Origin: Nitrosopumilus sp.
GTDB lineage: Archaea > Thermoproteota > Nitrososphaeria > Nitrososphaerales > Nitrosopumilaceae
Length of the DNA stretch: 64,000 nucleotides
Reading direction: 5' to 3'
NCBI GenBank assembly: GCA_965223425.1
Contig: OZ245003.1
Span: 320,001-384,000 of the forward strand
Shown here: piece by piece, positions 1,632 through 51,300 of the stretch
Numbering within the stretch: the first letter of the stretch is position 1
Layout: every line of letters begins with the position of its first letter
Notes under the pieces: generated by a model
Seen by the model: the letters and a program-made list of their open reading frames with translations, nothing else
Database searches by the model: none
What the model was told of the DNA's origin: nothing
Position numbers and translations under genes: made by a program

Positions 1632-3128
1632 TTGAGTAGTATACGAGTAACGTATTCTGGCCTTATCGGGTTTGTAGTTGCTATGAGTGGAATTTTATTC
1701 GGACTGGCTTTTACAATTATTGTTACCAGGCAGTTAGAACCACAGGAGTTTGGCATTTGGGCAATAATTGGAAGAATGCTGGGGTACTCCATTATTACTG
1801 AGGTAATAATTTCTTATTGGTCTGTAAGACAAATTGCACGAAATGAGCCTATTGGAAAAACATCTATTATATCCAGCTCGCTTTTCTCTGTCGGTTCTAT
1901 TCCGATTTACGTAATTTGCGTATACTTGTTCTCAGATGTGAACGATGCGTTCTTTAGCTCTATGTTACTTGCTACGATTTTAATTCCCGTAATGTTCATC
2001 CGTGGCACCCTACATAGTATAAATTTTGGTCATATGCCACATGCTACAAGCATCGGAATAGCTGTTTTTCAACTTCTAAAAATTCCCTGTAGCCTTGGAT
2101 TGGTTTTTTTCCTAGACCTAGGACTGAATGGCGTAATTATCGCCATTTTCATTGCATACTTGGGTGAGATCGCAGTTCAACTTAGATATGCAATACCAAA
2201 GCTATCCGTCTCTCTGAACTTTTCATATTTAAAAAACTGGATTAAACAAAGCTGGATACCAATGTATGCAACAATATCAAATGTTATGGCAATCCTAGAT
2301 GTGATAATTTTTACAATAATTACCGGTTCCATTATTGGCGTTGCATATTATGCGGCAGCTGCAGTGGTGGCCAATCTTGTTGCTCGTACAGGATCAATCC
2401 ATAAGGCACTTTATCCAAAATTGTTAGCTAGTGGAAGTCGTGAACATATCAATGAAAATTTTATATTGATACTATATTTTGCAATACCCCTATTGTTCAT
2501 TACGATTATTTTCCCTAAACACATCTTGTTTGTACTAAACTCCGAATATGCCCATATGGGAATGGCAGTCACGTTCTTGTCCCTTCATGCATTTTTTTAC
2601 ATGATTACCACATTTTTCAATCGGACTCTGCTTGGAATAGAGGATGTAGACGTTGAGAAAAGACCTAGTCCGTCACAGTTGTTCAGAAGCAAATTATTCC
2701 TAATCTCTAGCATATCTAATATACGTCATGTACTTTACATAGGAACTTTGGCTACACTCCTATATGCCTTTCAAGATCTATCAGATACAGAACTAGTCAA
2801 CATGTGGTCAATGATTGCATTAGCGTTTTCAATTCCGTTTTTGATTTACTCGGGTATTTTAGTAAGAAGATATGCCATACTCCCAACACCCTATGTGCCA
2901 ATTCTAAAATATTTGATAGGCGGAATAAGCATAGCAATTACGTTTGTATTTACTAATGAGTATGTTGTGGTGTTTGAATCTAATATTTATTCATATTTGC
3001 CCAATCTAATATTGGAGCTAATGCTTTGCTGTGTCGTGTATGTGGGAGTTACATATGCAATTGACCGCAAAACTAGGAACCTCTTCAAACTGGTCGCCTT
3101 GGAAACTCTTTCCCGGTGGAAGAAATGA
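1632..3128 (+). CDS. Polysaccharide flippase (Wzx/MOP-superfamily) membrane protein
   Basis: 498 aa with many TM segments; ITRQLEPQEFGIW N-terminal motif typical of O-antigen/oligosaccharide flippases; glycan-locus context. Confidence 0.75.
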   Translation: MSSIRVTYSGLIGFVVAMSGILFGLAFTIIVTRQLEPQEFGIWAIIGRMLGYSIITEVIISYWSVRQIARNEPIGKTSIISSSLFSVGSIPIYVICVYLFSDVNDAFFSSMLLATILIPVMFIRGTLHSINFGHMPHATSIGIAVFQLLKIPCSLGLVFFLDLGLNGVIIAIFIAYLGEIAVQLRYAIPKLSVSLNFSYLKNWIKQSWIPMYATISNVMAILDVIIFTIITGSIIGVAYYAAAAVVANLVARTGSIHKALYPKLLASGSREHINENFILILYFAIPLLFITIIFPKHILFVLNSEYAHMGMAVTFLSLHAFFYMITTFFNRTLLGIEDVDVEKRPSPSQLFRSKLFLISSISNIRHVLYIGTLATLLYAFQDLSDTELVNMWSMIALAFSIPFLIYSGILVRRYAILPTPYVPILKYLIGGISIAITFVFTNEYVVVFESNIYSYLPNLILELMLCCVVYVGVTYAIDRKTRNLFKLVALETLSRWKK

Positions 3129-3145
3129 CAGTAGACTTTATGCAT

Positions 3146-3362
3146 CCATGTGAATTCTTTATAAACATTCCTTGCAAACTGTCACAGTGTTGAATGGCTC
3201 ACGTTAGGGTTGATCCAAATTCCAAAAGATGAGCGGACAAGTATCCATTCGGGATCTTACTCCCAGTGCCATTCTTCATCCATTTGTTAGATTGAACCGC
3301 AGTTAATTGCCCGAGGTGTAACCTCAACGCATAAAACGCAGACAGACTCTAACCGTAATAAA
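3146..3362 (-). ncRNA. Putative bridge RNA / seekRNA of the IS1111-type element
   Basis: Nested stems GUUAGA/UCUAAC and CUGCGUU/AACUGCGG enclose an internal loop UUUAUGCGU-[GAGGU-UAC-ACCUC]-GGG-CAAUUA that matches both halves of the insertion site. Confidence 0.75.
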
Positions 3363-4352
3363 TTATTTTTGGGCAACATACTCTTTTTTCTCCTTTAGCA
3401 TCCAATATATTACACGTATCAGCTTTGATGCCGCTGCAACCTTTGCCTTTGATCTTCCTCTCTTTTTTGCAAGACGGTTGTAGAATCTTGTAATGTCGCT
3501 GTCAGGCGCGTGTCTTGTATGGGTCTGGATTGCCTCCACTGCTATCCATCGCAGCATACGGCTTCCCCTCTTTGTTATCCTGCCGTGGTGTACCGTCTCA
3601 GCAGAGTTTCTCACGGACGGAACAATGCCCGCGTATGCACACAGTTTGTGCGAGTCTGAAAATCTTTTGACATTGCCAATCTCCGAATATATTGCAAGCG
3701 CAGAATAATACCCTATTCCAGGAACGGTGGTCAGCAGACTGATGTTCTGATCCCTTTTGACTATCCGGCGGGTTTTTACATCCATTTTGTAGATCTGCCC
3801 GTCTAGAAACGCTATGGAATCAAGGAACGAATCTATGCGATAGTTCCTCAGTTTTCTCAATTCCCTTACGTGGCCGGATCCGAATCCGCCGGATTTTGTC
3901 TTGATTCCGTTTTGCAAGAGTATCCCATGTATGGAATTCTTCATGACTGTTCTTGTCTTGACCAGTTTGTTTCTGTGTCTTGCAAGGTGTCTTAGCTCTA
4001 CTATGTCATTGTCGGGCACGTGGCACTGTGCAATGTAGCCCCCTCTCAATAGATTTGCCAGCGCCTGCGCGTCCACCTTGTCTGTTTTTTTGAGCGACGT
4101 TGCAATTACCTTGGTGCTAAACGGATTGGATACGATTACATTTAATCCCAGCGTATCTGTGAGAAACCGGTATAGGCCGTACCAGACAGATGATGATTCC
4201 AGCACGTATTTTGAGTCCCTTGGGATCATGGCAAATGTTTTCCTGATCTCCGCATGATTGTTCTTTATCTTCATGTTGGACTGCAGTGTCCCGCCGCCAT
4301 CCAGTACTGCAACTTGAATCGTCTCCTTGTGTACGTCTAGTCCAACATACAT
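3363..4352 (-). CDS. IS110-family DEDD recombinase/transposase, intact
   Basis: YVGLDVHK, LESS, KKTDKVDA RuvC-DEDD motifs; GIVPSVRNSA serine motif; probable ATG at 4352. Confidence 0.95.
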   Translation of the reverse strand: MYVGLDVHKETIQVAVLDGGGTLQSNMKIKNNHAEIRKTFAMIPRDSKYVLESSSVWYGLYRFLTDTLGLNVIVSNPFSTKVIATSLKKTDKVDAQALANLLRGGYIAQCHVPDNDIVELRHLARHRNKLVKTRTVMKNSIHGILLQNGIKTKSGGFGSGHVRELRKLRNYRIDSFLDSIAFLDGQIYKMDVKTRRIVKRDQNISLLTTVPGIGYYSALAIYSEIGNVKRFSDSHKLCAYAGIVPSVRNSAETVHHGRITKRGSRMLRWIAVEAIQTHTRHAPDSDITRFYNRLAKKRGRSKAKVAAASKLIRVIYWMLKEKKEYVAQK

Positions 4353-4519
4353 GATCTTGTCAGAACCACGGGTAATCTGTTTCTTTGTTTTTTTCTTTTT
4401 AAAGGACTTGATGCCAGTGTCATCTAAAATTCCTTTTCTCCGAGCCTTCACATATGGTTAATTGAATCATAAAAATTTTTCCGAAAGATTTAGATCCATT
4501 TTGATCGCCGCAACAGGTA

Positions 4520-5799
4520 ATGGAATCTTCAGAACAGACTATACGCAGGCTGCAAAGGGAGCTCAAGCAAAAGGACACAGCAATCAGGCAAAAGGACACA
4601 GCAATCAAGCAGAACAACAGAGCAATCAAGCAGAACAACAGAGCAATCAAGCAGAACAACAGAGCAATCAAGCAGAACAACAGAGCAATCAAGCAAAAGG
4701 ACGCAGCAATCAGCAGGCGCGAGAAGACGATTGGCCTGCTGCGCGAGCAGCAGCTGCTGCGCGAGGACAGCCTGTGGGCCGTTACAGATGCAGGCCGCCC
4801 TGATACGGACACGTCGCTGCTGCACATCAGGGAGGTGATCCACGGCATACTGCACAACAGCGCAAAGCTTGCAGGGATTACCTCGTATGACCTTGACCAG
4901 TTTGACTACATCTGCAATGACTTTGTGGTAGAGTCAAAGAGGCACAACAAAGACGCGCCGCTCTTTTCAGAGGACGGGACACCGGATCCCGGAAACCGCT
5001 GCCTGCCTGGCCGCAGGTCCGTCCTGCTGCTTGCGCTGTTCCGCAAGCGCTCAAACGTGACGCAGGACGCTCTGGGGCGCTGTTTGATGTTGACCAGTCC
5101 ACCGTGTGCAGGTACCTCCGGTTCGCAGATTCCGTGCTGGCAAAGATTCTGCCTACTGCAGACAGGATGACCCGTCTGGTAAAAAAGGCCGAGACATCAG
5201 GGCAGCTAGAGCAGCTAATGCCGGACAGAACCATCATAATTGACGGCACCGAGGTGGTGCCAAGGCAGCGTCCGCAGGACAGGGATAAAAGAAAAAACAC
5301 GTACTCTGGCAAAAAGAAGCGCTTTACGATTAACACCGCCATAACAACAAACAGGGCAGGCCTGATACCTGCAGCAGGCAGGTCCTTTGAGGGCGGGACG
5401 CACGACCTTACCATGATAAGAGAGGATCCGACAGACTTTGGCAGGCGGTCTAAATCCATGTACAAAAAGGACACTCCGGAAAAGGACAGGATACGGTGCT
5501 TGCAGACAAGGGGTACCAGGGATGCCAATCACTACACGGGAATGGCACTTGAGATGCCGGAAAAAAAGAGGCCGCGGACGGAGCTGACGCAGCAGCAAAA
5601 GGACTCGAACAAAAGGATCAGCGCCAAGAGGGTAAAGGCGGGGCACGCCATCGGAAGAATAAAGCAGTGGGCGAGGATGACAGACCCGTATGACGGCACG
5701 GTAGAGGAGTTTCGCGAGGAGCTGGCTGTGTGTACCGGCCTTGCAAACTTTCAACTGCTGTGGGATGCAAAGAAAAAGCGGCCGTCACTTGGTTATTGA
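4520..5799 (+). pseudogene. IS5-B transposase (coiled-coil N-terminus + HTH + DDE_Tnp_4), frameshifted
   Basis: ORFs 4520-5170 and 5104-5799; IIIDGTE and YSGKKKRF motifs; the ADKGYQG motif is out of frame. Confidence 0.85.
4565..4713 (+). repeat. 21-bp tandem repeat encoding heptads IKQNNRA / IKQKDTA
   Basis: CAATCAAGCAGAACAACAGAG x4 plus CAATCA(A/G)GCAAAAGGAC(A/G)CAG variants. Confidence 0.95.
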
Positions 5800-5987
5800 C
5801 GGCACAGCACAGGGTGCATGAGGCACTGCAAGAGTGCGCACGGATTTCTAATTTCTGCGAATTTACACGGCCTTTTGCGTCAAAATTAAATAATTTCCTG
5901 GACTGGCTTTGTGTGTCTTGGTAATGTATGCTGCAGAAAAAATTTGACGGGTCAATTATGCATAAAGTCTCTTATCCTTGGATTAGT

Positions 5988-10293: not shown

Positions 10294-11424
10294 TAGTGAA
10301 TTGGATTAACAATCGCTCACAAAACAGACAACATTATTCAACCACAAGATCTAGATCCCAGTGTATGGCAGAATCCGCATGAAATACAACGATTCCATAG
10401 TAATACCGGCAGACAAAAGATTCCTGTCCGGCGTCTCCAGTGCGCGCCTGCGCAGCATGCAAAAAAAGGAGACAGATCCCAGGGCCGCAGCAAGGCTGCT
10501 GGCATATGCCATGCGCAAGGAGGGCATGTCCATACGCCGGATATGCATGGCCCTCAACTGGCCATACTCTACAGTACGGGGCTGGCTTGTGCGCGCCGCA
10601 CAGCTTGGCACCGACGGCAGATACGACATCAAAAATGAAGGCGCGCCAAACAAGCTCGATCCGGAACAGACAAAGCAGCTGCGCGCAGACCTGCTGGCAG
10701 GCCCGCGCAGTTGCGGCTTTGAGTCCGGAGTGTGGACGGCACCGCTGCTGGCCGCACACATCAGAAAAAAGTTCGGCGTGCAGTATGCCACTGTCAGCAT
10801 ATATGACATACTGCACAGGATGGGCTTTTCGTGCAGAAAGCCGCGTCCAAAGCACCCAAGTCAGCCTCAGAATCAGAGAAAAAAGAGTTTAAAAAAAAGC
10901 AGGGGAGGTAATCCGGAGCCATCCAGGCCATACGGTGGTTACAGTTGACGAGGCCTCCTTTATCATTGGGTGGAATACCAAGAACGGGTGGTACCCCAAG
11001 GGCAGGCCCGTCACCACTCCAGTCAGCCTGTCGCGCAAAAGGTTCTACTCGTTTGGGGCACTACGACGGAGGCTTTGACTGCAGGTTCTATGCCAAGGCC
11101 GACAGCTACAGCTTTGTGGACATGCTCGGACACCTGCATCTCAAGCACGGCAAGATCATCGTCTTTCTTGATAACGCATCATACCACAAGTCAAAGATGG
11201 TCAATGATTTTGTCGACTCGTATGACGGCGACATAGTCCTTGTTTACTTGCCCGTGTACACCCCGGAGCTGAATACCACGGAGGGGCAGTGGAGGCTGTT
11301 AAGAAGGGCCACTGCAAACGTGATGTATGAAAGTACAAAGGTGATGAAGGAATCCATATGGACAATGCTGGATAGACGTGAGGTCAGGATAACAAGGATG
11401 AGCGGTTATTTATCCTAGTCACTA
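10294..11424 (+). mobile_element. IS630-family element B, frameshifted transposase
   Basis: TIR TAGTGAATTGGAT / TAGTGACTAGGAT; ORFs 10361-10948 and 10945-11418 with LDNASYH, PELNTTE; A-run slippery site near 10890. Confidence 0.9.
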
Positions 11425-12337
11425 CGTTATGTGTCCATAGTGCACGGACTCGCCGGAGGATCTCACAGACGGAACAACGCCGACATAAGAGCACAGCTTG
11501 TGCGAGTTGACGAACCTTCCTATGCCGTCTATTGTACATGCAATGACCAGTGCAGAGTATGCCCCGACACCCGGAACGGTCTGCAGCAGAGTTGCATCCT
11601 CGTTCTCCTTTGCTGCCTGGCGCACCCTTGCATCTGACTGGAGTATCTTGTCGTTTATGCTGTTTATCGTGTCCAGGTACGAGTCTATCCTATAGTCGCT
11701 TATCTTTCGAACCTGCGCAATCCATGGCCCGCAAAACGGCTTGCCGTCAGGCCGAATCGATCTCTGCAGCAGTATGCCGTGTATGGAGTTCTTCAGTCCT
11801 GTCCTGTGGCGTACCAGGTTGTGCCGGTAATTCACCAGGTCCCTGTTGTTCATGTTCTGCAACGTGGGTACGTGGCACGATACTATGTATCCTCCCCTGT
11901 GCATGTCTGCCAGAATTCTGGCATCCACCTTGTCAGTCTTCTTTTTGGACTCTGCTATGAGCTTGGTGGTGTACGGGTTTGACAGCGACACGTCCATGCT
12001 TAGCTCGTCTCTTGTCTGAAAGAACGGCGCCTTCCAGACAGACGAGGATTCCATCACAAGCTTAGAGTCCCTGTGCAAACAGCCTATGTTGTACCTGATG
12101 TCTTCGGCTGTGTTTGCTATCTCTTTGTTGAGCAGTTCCTCGCCGTTTTCATCCATGACTGACATCTGGATGGTCTTCTTGTGGACATCCAGGCCGACAA
12201 AGACAGCTGACATGCATATCCTCGGATCTGGGGTTGTGTGTTTGTTTGCATTTCTGATCCTTGCAGTACCGGCTCTGTTTTCTGAACCAGAACCACTCTT
12301 ATCATCTGATTTCCTTGATCGGGGCACATAAGATTAC
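11425..12337 (-). mobile_element. IS110-family element A, 3'-truncated (transposase from about 12213)
   Basis: VFVGLDVHKK, KKTDKVDA, VVPSVRSSG motifs; cut by IS630-B. Confidence 0.9.
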
Positions 12338-17284: not shown

Positions 17285-18426
17285 TAGTAAGCACATAAAA
17301 AAACTGAATCATTTTGACAATTATTTTTGGCCAAAAGATCCAAGACCGGCCATATCGCACACACTGCATGTACAAACAAAAAAAGAGACAGGTTGCAAGG
17401 GGGGCAAAATTTCTGCCAAACACCGGCGTTGCAGACCTCAAAAAGGCATACAAAAAAGAGACCGATCCCAGAAGGCGCGACAGGCTGCTTGCGTACATGC
17501 AGCGCAAGGACGGCGTGCCGCTAGACAGGATTGGAAGGATGCTGGGAAGGCCCAGGTCCACCATATCTGCATGGCTCAACCGCGCACAGGAAGAGGGAAT
17601 GCGTGCAAGATTCGAGCGCAGCGGCAGGGGACGAAAGCACCTGCTAAACGGGCCGCAGTCAAGACAGCTTGCAGCAGACCTGGATGCGGGGCCGGAGTCA
17701 TGCGGCTTTGAGAGCAGCCTGTGGGACTCCAACCTGGTAAGGCTGCACATCAAGCGAAAGTTCGGCGTGCAGTACAGCAAAACAGGCGCGCTGCAGCTGA
17801 TCAGGGAGATGGGCTTTTCGTGGAGCAAGGCGCGTCCAAAAAACCCCAAGTCAGCCTCAAAAAGAAAGCAAAAAGAGTTTCAGGGGCGAGCAAAAAAACT
17901 CGTTGCAGAAAAGTCGGCACAGGGGTACACCATCCTGGCAAACGACGAGTCCTCGATTGAAAAGGCATCAAACAGGCCCGGCTACGGGTGGAGAAGGCGC
18001 GGCAGACATGCCACATCCCCATCTTTTTTGTCACGCGAGAGAAGATACATCTTTGGAGCTTTGGCGGCAAACGCATTTTACTTTATGTTTTATGAAAAGC
18101 CAGACAGCGACAGCTTTTGCAGCTTTCTGGAACGGGTTCACAAAAGATTCGGCAGGGTGCTGCTGTTTGTAGACAATGCGTCATATCACAAATCCAAAAA
18201 GGTAAAAGAGTTTCTGGAAAGATACAACGGCGAGATAGTTCTGGAGTACCTGCTGCCGTACACGCCGGAGCTTAATCCCATTGAGATGCAGTGGAGGGTG
18301 ATAAAGCGGGTACTGTCTGCAAAGGTGTTTGGCACGCTAGATGAGATGGAGCAGTCAGTACGCAAGCTGTTTGCCAGAAAGGAGATCCTGCCTGTGAAAA
18401 TGTTCAATTATTTAATGTGCTAACTA
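17285..18426 (+). mobile_element. IS630-family element A, intact (transposase 17314-18423)
   Basis: 369-aa transposase, NDES / DNASYH / PELNPIE; TAGT...ACTA ends. Confidence 0.95.
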
Positions 18427-18946
18427 CAGATTGTGTCTATAATTCACCAGGTCCCTGTTCTCCATGTTCTGTGATGAGGGTATGTGACATGATATTATGT
18501 ATCCTCCCCTGTGCATGTCTGCCAGAATTCTGGCATCCACCTTGTCAGTCTTCTTTTTGGATTCTGCTATGAGCTTGGTTGTGTATGGGTTTGATAGCGA
18601 CACGTCCATGCTTAGCTCGTCTCTTATCTGAAAGAACGGTGCCTTCCAACAGATGAGGATTCCATCACAAGCTTCGAGTCCTTGTGTAGGCAGCCGATGT
18701 TGTACCTGATGTCTTTTGGTGTGTTTGCTATCTTTTTGTTGAGCAGTTCCTCACCGTTTTTATCCGTAACAGACACCTGATGGTCTTCTTGTGGACATCC
18801 AGGCCGACAAAGCCAGCTGACATGCATATACCTGGATTAGGACTGTGTGTTTGTTTGCATTTCTGATCCTTTTAGCAGTGGATCTTTTTGAACCAGAACT
18901 GTTCTTATCATCATCTAATTTCCTTGATCGAGGCACATAAGATTAC
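18427..18946 (-). mobile_element. IS110-family element A, degenerate 5' part
   Basis: Same left end and KKTDKVDA fragment as the other copies; frameshifted. Confidence 0.85.
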
Positions 18947-31607: not shown

Positions 31608-33131
31608 AGACTTTATGCATAATTGACCCGTCAAATTTTTTCTGCAGCATACATTACCAAGACACACAAAGCCAGTCCAGGAAATTATTTAATTTTGATG
31701 CAAAAGATCATTGTAAATTCGCAGAAATTAGAAATCCGTGCGCACTCTTGCAGTGCCTCATGCACCCTGTGCTGTGCCGTCAATAACCAAGTGACGGCCG
31801 CTTTTTCTTTGCATCCCACAGCAGTTGAAAGTTTGCAAGGCCGGTACACACAGCCAGCTCCTCGCGAAACTCCTCTACCGTGCCGTCATACGGGTCTGTC
31901 ATCCTCGCCCACTGCTTTATTCTTCCGATGGCGTGCCCCGCCTTTACCCTCTTGGCGCTGATCCTTTTGTTCGAGTCCTTTTGCTGCTGCGTCAGCTCCG
32001 TCCGCGGCCTCTTTTTTTCCGGCATCTCAAGTGCCATTCCCGTGTAGTGATTGGCATCCCTGGTACCCCTTGTCTGCAAGTACCCGTATCCTGTCCTTTT
32101 CCGGAGTGTCTTTTTTGTACATGGATTTAGACCACCTGCCAAAGTCTATCGGATCCTCTCTTATCATGGTAAGGTCGTGCGTCCCGCCCTCAAAGGACCT
32201 GCCTGCTGCAAGTATCAGGCCTGCCTTGTTTGTTGTTATGGTGGTGTTAATCGTAAAGCGCTTCTTTTTGCCAGAGTACGTGTCTTTTCTTTTATCCCTG
32301 TCCTGCGGACGCTGCCTTGGCACCACCTCGGTGCCGTCAATTATGATGGTTCTGTCCGGCATTAGCTGCTCTAGCTGCCCTGATGTCTCGGCCTTTTTTA
32401 CCAGACGGGTCATCCTGTCTGCAGTAGGCAGAATCTTTGCCAGCACGGAATCTGCGAACCGGAGGTACCTGCACACGGTGGACTGGTCAACATCAAACAG
32501 CGCCCCAGAGCGTCCTGCGTCACGTTTGAGCGCCTGCGGAACAGCGCAAGCAGCAGGACGGACCTGCGGCCAGGCAGGCAGCGGTTTCCGGGATCCGGTG
32601 TCCCGTCCTCTGAAAAGAGCGGCGCGTCTTTGTTGTGCCTCTTTGACTCTACCACAAAGTCATTGCAGATGTAGTCAAACTGGTCAAGGTCATATGGTAA
32701 TCCCTGCAAGCTTTGCGCTGTTGTGCAGTATGCCGTGGATCACCTCCCTGATGTGCAGCAGCGACGTGTCCGTATCAGAGCGGCCTGCATCTGTAACGGC
32801 CCACAGGCCGTCCTCGCGCAGCAGCTGCTGCTCGCGCAGCAGGCCAATCGTCTTCTCGCGCCTGCTGATTGCTGCGTCCTTTTGCTTGATTGCTCTGTTG
32901 TTCTGCTTGATTGCTCTGTTGTTCTGCTTGATTGCTCTGTTGTTCTGCTTGATTGCTGTGTCCTTTTGCTTGATTGCTCTGTTGTTCTGCTTGATTGCTG
33001 TGTCCTTTTGCTTGAGCTCCCTTTGCAGCCTGCGTATAGTCTGTTCTGAAGATTCCATTACCTGTTGCGGCGATCAAAATGGATCTAAATCTTTCGGAAA
33101 AATTTTTATGATTCAATTATGCATAAAGTCT
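31608..33131 (-). mobile_element. IS5-family element B, copy 3; both TIRs intact, transposase frameshifted
   Basis: 19-bp TIR AGACTTTATGCATAATTGA at both ends; followed by an internal IS5-B fragment at 33132-33260. Confidence 0.92.
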
Positions 33132-34728: not shown

Positions 34729-35620
34729 GAAGGGAATCAGATGGCTGCATGAAATCAATCTGACAGAAGTTGACAGGATGGCAATGAACACATATCTTGA
34801 AAACATTGAGATGAATCAAAAACAGATTGACACATTTGAGACAAAGATTGCTACAATTAGCAACGAGGATGAAAGAACAAGACTAATCATGACAATACCT
34901 GGAATAAGCTATGTCACGGCACTGACAATAATATCCGAGATAGTTGATATTAACAGATTTGCAACAGTAGAGAAATTAGTGTCATATGCGGGACTTGCAC
35001 CATCACACAGAGACAGCGGAGAGACGCAAAAAGGAGGAGGCGGAATAACAAAACGGGGTTCTGCATGGCTGCGCAATGCAATGGTGGAGGCTGCAAACAC
35101 TACGATACGATTTGATCCAAGGATGGAATCATTTTATTCAAGAATTGCAAAAAGGAGAGGAAAACAAAAGGCAAGGATAGCAGCTGCAAGGCAGATGATG
35201 CTTGAGATAATCTGGTACATGCTAACAAACATGGAGGAATACCGCACACAGAATCACGAGTTGACGCAAAGAAAGTATAAGAAGATGCAGGACAAATCAG
35301 AAACGTCCTGATTCAGCAAAGCACACTAAGAATGGCCCGCAGTAGGATAAGAGACGATTTCGTATGGGAGAACCATTAGGATGTACAAATGTCGGTGTAC
35401 TCCGGCATGTATATCTTCCAAATAGGGAGGAGAGAAATTTGGAATTATCACTAGCAGTTTGGGGTTTTGAAGTTCTGTATAGATGAGAAGCTGCGTGGAA
35501 TGTAGGTGTCTGCTAAATGGGAATCCATACGATGAATCACAACTCCCAGCTATTCGCAATAGATCCAGAGACAACCGCCAAAATTCAATAGGGCATGATC
35601 TAAGCCCATATGTAACCATT
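34729..35620 (+). mobile_element. IS110-family element C, 3' half plus structured 3' non-coding region
   Basis: ORF 34778-35311 with TIPGI, YAGLAPSHRDSG, ITKRG; about 300 bp downstream with several stems; right boundary approximate. Confidence 0.8.
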
Positions 35621-51201: not shown

Positions 51202-51300
51202 AGACCTTATGCATAATCGATCAAACTAATATTGCGAGATGATTTTTGCCTTAGTAAACCAATTTGATTTTGAATTTTTAGTCGATTACGCATAAGGTCT
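51202..51300. mobile_element. 99-bp MITE related to IS5-B
   Basis: TIR AGACCTTATGC(A/G)TAATCGA; 3-bp TSD AGT. Confidence 0.85.

Follow-up and report, generated by a model that had tools for sequence, protein, structure and literature searches.

A putative RNA-guided IS1111-type element inserted in the terminal inverted repeat of an IS5-like element of an ammonia-oxidising archaeon

Described RNA-guided elements and the archaeal locus

The insertion sequences (ISs) of the IS110 family encode recombinases of the DEDD type, and for bacterial members such as the IS1111 elements ISEc11, ISPa11 and ISKpn4 as well as for IS621 it has been established experimentally that a non-coding RNA guides the recombinase (Siddiquee et al. 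2024, PMC11187229; Durrant et al. 2024, PMC11208160). In ISEc11, ISPa11 and ISKpn4 the recombinase gene is followed by a long non-coding region. These elements possess subterminal inverted repeats and insert in one orientation, and relatives are naturally retargeted. In their seekRNA the stretch that pairs with the top strand precedes, in 5' to 3' direction, the one that pairs with the bottom strand, and both overlap in the target. The bridge RNA of IS621 (PDB 8wt6) is described in the second report with target and donor internal loops that read both strands around a core of 2 nt; this RNA is encoded in the left end of the element and its strand order is reversed. IS4321 is the classical IS1111 member that inserts site- and orientation-specifically inside the terminal inverted repeat (TIR) of another mobile element, namely of a bacterial Tn3-family transposon. 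To our knowledge, the experimental characterisation of RNA-guided DEDD recombinases has so far been limited to those of bacteria. Here, we describe an element of this kind in a stretch of 64,000 nucleotides of Nitrosopumilus sp. (the window, C1:320001-384000 of a genome of 2.64 Mb). It lies on the minus strand at window positions 3133-4470, comprises 1314 bp and contains a single open reading frame (ORF). The genome encodes an archaeal AmoA (E 3.9e-118) and the organism is therefore an ammonia-oxidising archaeon, which agrees with the thaumarchaeal origin proposed in an initial annotation made from the letters of the sequence. Most probably (we estimate roughly 0.85) this is an IS110-family element of IS1111 organisation with a guide RNA of two modules, which is encoded in the 3' non-coding region and directed at the TIR of an IS5-like element.

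With ISEc11, ISPa11 and ISKpn4 it shares the DEDD recombinase, the long downstream non-coding region, the subterminal inverted repeats, the order of the predicted guides with their overlap in the target, the single orientation of insertion and the natural retargeting among relatives. Unlike these, it resides in an archaeon, its protein is only distantly related, most members of its clade show S-A in the serine motif, and a TATA-type element probably replaces the bacterial junction promoter. The predicted target and donor loops around a 2-nt core, the protein domains and, by alignment, the catalytic residues are shared with IS621, to which the protein is only weakly similar (E 1.9e-8, 37 bits). 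Insertion inside the TIR of another element is the feature in common with IS4321, but here the host is an archaeal IS5-like IS, and protein identity amounts to 20%. ISHvo10 of Haloferax volcanii (annotated in NC_013966.1) is likewise archaeal and the closest named relative that was found. It differs from the element described here in that Siddiquee et al. (PMC11187229) describe it as diverged and as possessing long non-coding regions on both sides. A full-text literature search found no paper on seekRNA or bridge RNA elements of ammonia-oxidising archaea; the supplementary tables of the Durrant and Siddiquee reports may list archaeal elements with predicted RNAs. The coordinates of all features are collected in Table 1.

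Table 1. Features of the element and its surroundings (positions in the window)
Feature	Position	Strand	Remarks
Outer part of split IS5-like TIR	3133..3144	+	Sequence and flank comparison
IS1111-type element proper	3145..4458	-	1314 bp between core dinucleotides; junctions read, three genomic copies
Right-end subterminal inverted repeat	3146..3152	.	CACATGG in element sense
TATA-like box TTTATAAA	3158..3165	-	Distance of 13 nt to the terminal base of the right end; candidate junction promoter of archaeal type, putative function
Predicted seekRNA/bridge RNA	3202..3354	-	153 nt, two modules; covariance model 126.5 bits, E 1.4e-36, sole match in the window; helix covariation
Donor-binding module (predicted)	3235..3281	-	P4 GGAUG 3281-3277 / UGUCC 3239-3235; P5 hairpin 3265-3250
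Donor-module loops (predicted)		-	5' loop 3276-3266 (AUGGC 3272-3268); 3' loop 3249-3240 (AUGGAUA 3248-3242)
Target-binding module (predicted)	3286..3353	-	P1 GUUAGAG 3353-3347 / AUCUAAC 3292-3286; P2 CUGCG 3341-3337 / UGCGG 3301-3297; P3 hairpin 3326-3312
Bottom-strand target guide GGCAAUUAAC	3302..3311	-	CAAU-UA-A identical to left flank CAAT + core TA + first base of the element
Top-strand target guide UUUUAUGCGU	3327..3336	-	Pairs with A-TGCATAAAG, i.e. core A + outer TIR part
Recombinase gene	3363..4451	-	362 aa, GTG start at 4451; DEDD residues and catalytic-type Ser in motif GIVPSVRNSA
Left-end subterminal inverted repeat	4449..4457	.	CCATATGTG in element sense; includes the GTG start codon
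TA core, left-end junction	4459..4460	.	Partner TA at the right-end junction missing in the window copy
Remainder of host IS5-like element	4461..5970	+	DDE_Tnp_4 ORF 5104-5799, other TIR 5958-5970
Unoccupied target site in the window	33108..33131	-	Sequence match AGACTTTATGCATAATTGAATCAT

Genomic copies, target site and core

In the whole genome the element is represented by three full copies and by two remnants that consist of a truncated right end. The full copies differ pairwise by 4-9 single-nucleotide polymorphisms (SNPs) in 1314 bp, their ORFs are intact and their guides are identical. All five right-end junctions lie, in the same orientation, at one point of the IS5-like TIR (AGACTTTATGC-RY^AATTGA) and read AGA(C/T)TTTATGC-RY followed by CCATGTGAATTC. 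The three left-end junctions (CACATATGGT-TA-ATTGA) fall on the same TIR position, so that mapping of all genomic copies, which had been proposed initially as a check, revealed no junction at an unrelated site. Both ends of the IS5-like element (inner flanks AATTGAATCAT and AATTGACCCGTC) and three TIR variants (GCAT, GCGT, GCAC) are occupied, and several independent insertion events must therefore be assumed. Genome-wide, 39 cognate sites (TTTATGC[AG][TC]AATTG) are free. In the window the TIR motif occurs seven times at up to one mismatch, compared with an expectation of 0.12.

The host IS5-like element spans 3133-5970 with its left TIR interrupted; besides the DDE_Tnp_4 ORF it shows a weak NCBIfam IS5 match. 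The initial annotation had described this TIR as split into AGACTTTATGCAT at 3133-3145 and AATTGA at 4460-4465, with an unsplit site AGACTTTATGCATAATTGAATCAT on the minus strand at 33131..33108, and this description holds. Its borders of the element (3146-4459) give the same length as ours with a shift of 1 nt, because one T can be assigned to either side.

A comparison with the unsplit site reveals TA on both sides of the element (GCA-TA-TCCATG ... ATGGT-TA-ATTGA), which is the product expected of recombination at a shared core of 2 nt. The two other full copies and both remnants read GC-RY-AT followed by CCATGTG, i.e. they carry an extra plus-strand AT at four of the five right-end junctions, and only the window copy has lost 2 bp (TA) there. 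Contigs of three public runs bridge this right junction of the window copy without any difference, and the loss is therefore real and no slip of the assembly; other contigs of these runs carry the extra AT. The absence of a target-site duplication, as initially reported, is correct for the window copy, but not for the four junctions with a duplicated TA core, and the circle junction predicted from it, CATATGGTTCCATGTG, is wrong since it lacks the core. Both are artefacts of reading a single copy that had lost its TA. A canonical circle junction should carry the core and read CACATGGA-TA-ACCATATGTG in element sense. The core is TA in this element and CT in IS621.

Some observations on the targets may be added. 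The two remnants (G000:C1:66866-66900 and about C1:2260272) retain the junction between right end and outer TIR part; they are truncated in one case by the end of another IS and in the second case by an additional insertion of IS5. Near-cognate free ends (CTTATGC..AATCG, 42 in number) derive from an element of about 110 bp that resembles a miniature inverted-repeat transposable element (e.g., window 51202-51300). Its terminal repeat AGACCTTATGCGTAATCGA is related to the IS5 TIR, and 0 of these 42 ends are occupied in the genome. Within the first ORF (4520-5170) of the host IS5, a unit of 21 bp is repeated in tandem at window 4560-4690 and encodes heptads (AIKQNNR and similar), and the contig depth over these repeats is far above that elsewhere.

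Structure and conservation of the predicted guide RNA

Among 400 genomes sampled from the same family, 43 contain relatives of the recombinase (44-61% identity), a count that takes in one unpublished genome (G285) used for this purpose alone. They were obtained by a search across genomes; a search of genome contigs with the single protein returned just two distant loci. A sequence of about 155 nt is common to the relatives 3' of their stop codons. A covariance model built from the sequences of 25 relatives detects 43 RNAs (39 of them distinct) in 56 loci. In the genome under study it gives 12 matches, and in the window one (3354-3202).

The predicted RNA is composed of two modules. In the target-binding module the helices P1 and P2 surround an internal loop and the hairpin P3 forms the cap, and in the donor-binding module an internal loop is closed by P4 and capped by the hairpin P5. 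The target module had already been read initially from the segments GUUAGA (3353-3348) and UCUAAC (3291-3286), CUGCGUU (3341-3335) and AACUGCGG (3304-3297), UUUAUGCGU (3335-3327), GAGGU (3325-3321) and ACCUC (3317-3313), and CAAUUA (3309-3304), all of which are present as described. The donor-binding loop was overlooked and is an addition. The minimum free energy fold of a piece of 86 nt contains exactly these noted helices (-23.6 kcal/mol), and it is modestly better than shuffles (z = -2.27, 5 of 200 as good).

In the alignment based on the covariance model 89.2% of the cells are paired, compared with 34-50% if the 3' partners are slid by 1-3 columns, and compensatory changes are seen in 15 of 22 pairs. 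The covariation score is 0.414 versus 0.229 for shuffles, none of which (0/500) reached it. The helices stay constant among the relatives while the guide nucleotides vary. P1, P4 and P5 were recovered independently by RNAalifold from both alignments; MAFFT by itself misaligned the target module. A covariance model across homologues had been proposed as a check in the initial annotation, and it supports both the helices by covariation and, as outlined below, the guides.

Two features were noticed by eye. A conserved CCUAGCG..(A/G)GCCAU motif lies 3' of the donor module at window 3202-3225 (minus strand), and relatives have it at the corresponding position. The motif is similar to the left end read on the top strand and shows complementarity to the 5' loop of the donor module (in this element GAAUGGC with GCCAUUC). 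An alternative closing helix of the donor module can be drawn between GGAUGAAG and a segment after UGUCCG.

Target code and donor code

Both strands of the target loop correspond to the flanks of the element. The 5' strand is complementary to the right flank, and the guide UUUUAUGCGU pairs with the common TIR with one G.T and one U.G wobble; with the GCGT variant, which adjoins copy 2, the G.T wobble is gone. The 3' strand always ends with UAA and its preceding bases equal the left flank of the respective element (here GGCAAUUAAC versus ...TTCAAT-TA-A). Loop strands complementary to both target strands are thus present, as in seekRNA and bridge RNA systems, and their order is that published for IS1111 seekRNAs by Siddiquee et al. 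(PMC11187229). When the non-coding region was shuffled 5000 times with its dinucleotides preserved, 52 shuffles contained a target-complementary run at least as long as the observed one (11 nt, wobble allowed), and 7 contained it together with a left-flank match of 6 nt within 45 nt downstream. The 6-mer match to the left flank alone is not significant (2503 of 5000 shuffles).

The relatives allow a comparison of each guide with its own flanks and with those of the others. For this comparison 22 of 31 loci could be kept; L040, L041, L078, L084, L087, L088, L089, L090 and L091 were unparsable and dropped. In L042, L069 and L072 the top-strand guide was mis-parsed, and these loci were nevertheless kept among the 22, so that the outcome is if anything weakened by them. 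Beyond the constant UAA, the match between the bottom-strand guide and its own left flank extends over 3.14 nt on average, versus 0.32 nt for the flanks of others, and the mean Watson-Crick run of the top-strand guide is 5.45 nt with its own flank and 3.61 nt with those of others. For each of these guides the observed mean was reached in 0 of 10,000 permutations among these related elements. Even single-base differences between guides of close relatives are mirrored in their flanks, as is obvious from L074 (guide UUAACCUAGU, flank AGGTTAG) and L075 (guide UUAUCCUAGU, flank AGGATAG), an example of natural retargeting. The claim of the initial annotation that a guide RNA in the 3' non-coding region is aimed at the TIR of another IS is in line with both the eight junctions (five right, three left) and the own-flank matches of the 22 relatives.

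A relative in another genus (G104, 54% identity) is inserted at the same point of a homologous TIR (TA-TGCATAAGGTCT), which occurs 32 times in that genome and once in a control, and its guide covaries with this TIR (CUUGUGCAU). TIR-like flanks are also found for a relative in G409 (59% identity). The association with the IS5 family therefore seems to be old.

The donor module reads the ends of the element itself. Its 3' loop AUGGAUA repeats the terminal five bases of the right end together with the TA core. An identity of 7/7 positions between this loop and the own right end is seen in 27 of 38 relatives, and the loop covaries in the ATAGATA, ATGAGTA, ATGGGTA and ATGGATG types; five of the 11 imperfect rows (the second hit of L076, L078, L041, L024 and L058), where the locator chose the wrong right end, are scored as misses in this count. 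The 5' loop AUGG(U/C) corresponds, as reverse complement, to the five bases with which the left end begins. All five positions match in 13 of 30 relatives, and four or more in 29 of 30. CTAT left ends are paired with AUAG loops and CCGT ends with ACGG. Also for each donor guide the observed mean was reached in 0 of 10,000 permutations. A second loop complementary to both element ends is thus present, and since its strands track the ends as those of the target loop track the flanks, the two modules appear to follow the same logic, as in bridge RNAs.

Recombinase and family assignment

The recombinase matches Pfam DEDD_Tnp_IS110 (RuvC-like, N-terminal, PF01548; E 3.7e-24) and Transposase_20 (C-terminal, PF02371; E 2.9e-22), both above the gathering scores, and it reaches 240 bits with NCBIfam NF033542 ("IS110 family RNA-guided transposase", cut-off 140). 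With IS621 and ISCro4, for which structures have been solved, it aligns weakly (E about 1e-8). In this alignment VGLDV, LESSS, KTDKVDA and PSVRNSA, which are conserved in relatives, fall on the segments with the catalytic Asp, Glu, Asp, Asp and Ser. The assignment of catalytic positions follows the residue numbering of IS621. The serine motif GIVPSVRNSA contains S-A, and of the 30 relatives with a recognisable motif 23 show S-A and seven S-G. S-A was considered as the mark of a dead enzyme and this was rejected: it is the majority state among the relatives and therefore no sign of decay. For IS1111 elements the C-terminal motif GL-P----S(t)G is reported by Siddiquee et al. 2024 (PMC11187229) to occur with SG, TG and occasionally TA.

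The ORF is flanked by 8 nt 5' of the GTG and by 217 nt 3' of the stop codon, and this is the IS1111 layout. Together with the Pfam matches it bears out the IS1111-type DEDD recombinase initially annotated at 3146-4459. The subterminal repeats (left CCATATGTGAA, right the complement of CCATGTGAA) have nine matching positions with an indel of 2 nt. They are set in by 1 nt plus the core, the ends recur across relatives, and the repeats conform to the 7-17 bp of IS1111 elements. Named relatives are distant, with 37% identity over 91% of the protein for ISHvo10 (E 3e-55) and 20% identity for IS4321 (E 4e-7). For this reason membership in the IS1111 group is supported by organisation and RNA logic in pairwise comparison, and not by a tree. 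On these grounds the element is a well-supported new archaeal member of the known seekRNA/bridge-RNA kind, whose activity and RNA expression we infer.

Candidate junction promoter and proposed mechanism

A TATA-like octamer lies 13 nt from the last base of the right end, and among 39 distinct relatives examined 23 have one at this distance. If the TA core is part of the circle, the centre of the box would lie 27 nt upstream of the GTG, which is located in the left-end repeat in frame with the recombinase. Such a spacing between TATA box and start is typical of archaeal promoters of leaderless mRNAs. The reading frame is open from the left tip in the 10 loci examined with the left end in view, and the protein matches of the closest relatives start at query residues 5-30. 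Siddiquee et al. (PMC11187229) mention a bacterial promoter that arises when the two ends join, and the TATA-like box is likely its archaeal counterpart.

This suggests the following course of events. The element would be excised as a circle, on which the TATA box of the right end, 27 nt upstream of the left-end GTG, would drive a leaderless transcript comprising recombinase and guide RNA. The processed RNA would be loaded onto the DEDD/Ser recombinase. The 5' strand of the target loop would then pair with the top strand to the right of the TA core and the 3' strand with the bottom strand to the left of and across the core, both jointly specifying CAAT-TA-TGCATAAAG, 13-14 bp inside the TIR of the abundant IS5-like element. 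The donor module would likewise read the joined ends of the element, CACATGGA-TA-ACCATATG. Strand exchange by the recombinase at the TA core would finally lead to insertion in one orientation.

As a tentative extension one may imagine that a clade of IS1111-like elements of ammonia-oxidising archaea adapted the bridge-RNA mechanism to archaeal expression, with a TATA promoter formed on the circle only, 13 nt from the right end, and a leaderless mRNA starting from the GTG in the left-end repeat. One lineage of this clade might have persisted across genera as a hyperparasite of IS5, tracking TIR variants via wobble-tolerant guides and disabling the IS5 end that it occupies. This scenario is possible, and we do not regard it as the probable one.

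Evaluation of alternative explanations

Several observations weigh against RNA-guided insertion into the IS5-like TIR as presented above. The window copy without its right-end TA may itself be unable to excise, and neither a circle junction nor an empty site was found in the contigs of four DNA runs, which cannot show rare circles. Among the RNA runs listed, none contains this stretch. The recombinase carries S-A where bacterial relatives show S-G, a state common to 23 of 30 relatives. The relatives are kin and the permutation tests thus overstate their independence. Flank matches are poor in L080, L082 and L091 (top-strand guide) as well as in L067 and L070 (bottom-strand guide), some of which have broken genes. 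The whole non-coding region of 220 nt folds no better than shuffles (z = -0.55). RNAalifold found on both alignments neither P2 nor P3, the inner helices of the target module, and their pair counts (81% and 80% of cells paired, compensatory changes in 4/5 and 3/5 pairs) come from an alignment fitted to a structure in which these two helices had been taken from the single-sequence fold. No Rfam family matches, as a scan of 2900-4700 at E <= 10 gave only a snoRNA hit at chance level (E 6.6). At E <= 1 the RNA model had no match on the ISHvo10 locus, and the same is true for a Natrinema locus and for a locus of a Nitrosopumilaceae metagenome-assembled genome, of which the failure with ISHvo10 counts here.

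The junctions could also be shared because one ancestral insertion was spread by transposition of its carrier IS5, without any RNA-guided targeting. Copies 1 and 2 would fit, as they occupy one and the same end of a single IS5 type and their inner flanks are identical over at least 60 bp. Copy 3, on the contrary, resides in the other IS5 end (AATTGACCCGTC), the five junctions comprise three TIR variants (GCAT, GCGT, GCAC) with differing outer flanks, and such hitch-hiking would need a composite that is mobilised via a split TIR. The different flanks of relatives elsewhere, each matching its own guide, are left unexplained by it, and we regard this explanation as improbable. Even less credible, to a degree that it can hardly be entertained, is recognition of the target by protein or by DNA structure, with a 3' structure that serves stability or termination of the transcript and guide matches that are coincidental. 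It could be based on the left-flank match of 6 nt, which by itself is expected by chance, and on the unremarkable fold of the whole region, but it is contradicted by the permutation tests of own versus other flanks and ends, which agree for both target and both donor guides, by guides that vary between constant helices, and by the mechanism known from experiments on bacterial relatives (PMC11187229; PMC11208160).

A different question is whether the RNA-guided design, though real for the family, has become a relic here, with copies that no longer move, in particular that of the window. Its missing TA core at the right-end junction, the small number of three full copies versus 39 free cognate sites, the truncation of two of the five insertions to remnants and the lack of joints in the contigs speak for such a loss. 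The three full copies, nevertheless, differ by merely 4-9 SNPs in 1314 bp with intact ORFs and identical guides, the catalytic residues are retained, and rare circles would be invisible to contigs; so a general loss of mobility is rather unlikely, and the preferred interpretation remains an RNA-guided element that may still be active.

Significance and related elements in the same genome

The mechanism as such is already established, and the gain offered by these archaeal elements would be in breadth and detail, not in principle. The clade presents dozens of natural archaeal pairs of recombinase and guide with readable target and donor codes, which could be useful for the study of guide-code variation, and as compact candidates they may already be suited to TATA-type promoters. 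It is also a clear case of an IS that homes into another IS at its terminal repeat, and the spread of IS5 in IS5-rich genomes may be limited in this way. The insertion may also immobilise the IS5 that it occupies, as the initial annotation proposed.

A second IS1111-like family is present in the same genome, with a recombinase of 49% identity and six hits of the RNA model. Its loci are G000:C1:1500638-1503201 (L012/L013) and C1:1159050, 1203001, 1804405 and 2373768. The own flank TA-CGAGTTCAC of this family is matched by the top-strand guide (AUGAACUCGU). An element of about 100 bp with GAGTTCAC inverted ends carries a copy of this family in each of its ends, the two being arranged head to head, and the second family therefore seems to home into repeat ends as well. 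IS110-family genes that are degenerate or incomplete, with internal stops or as fragments, are found in the window at 11422-12207, 18400-18648 and 34757-35251 and just upstream of it at C1:319613-319976. One of these degenerate genes is accompanied by a weak hit of the RNA model, and the region can be described as an IS graveyard.

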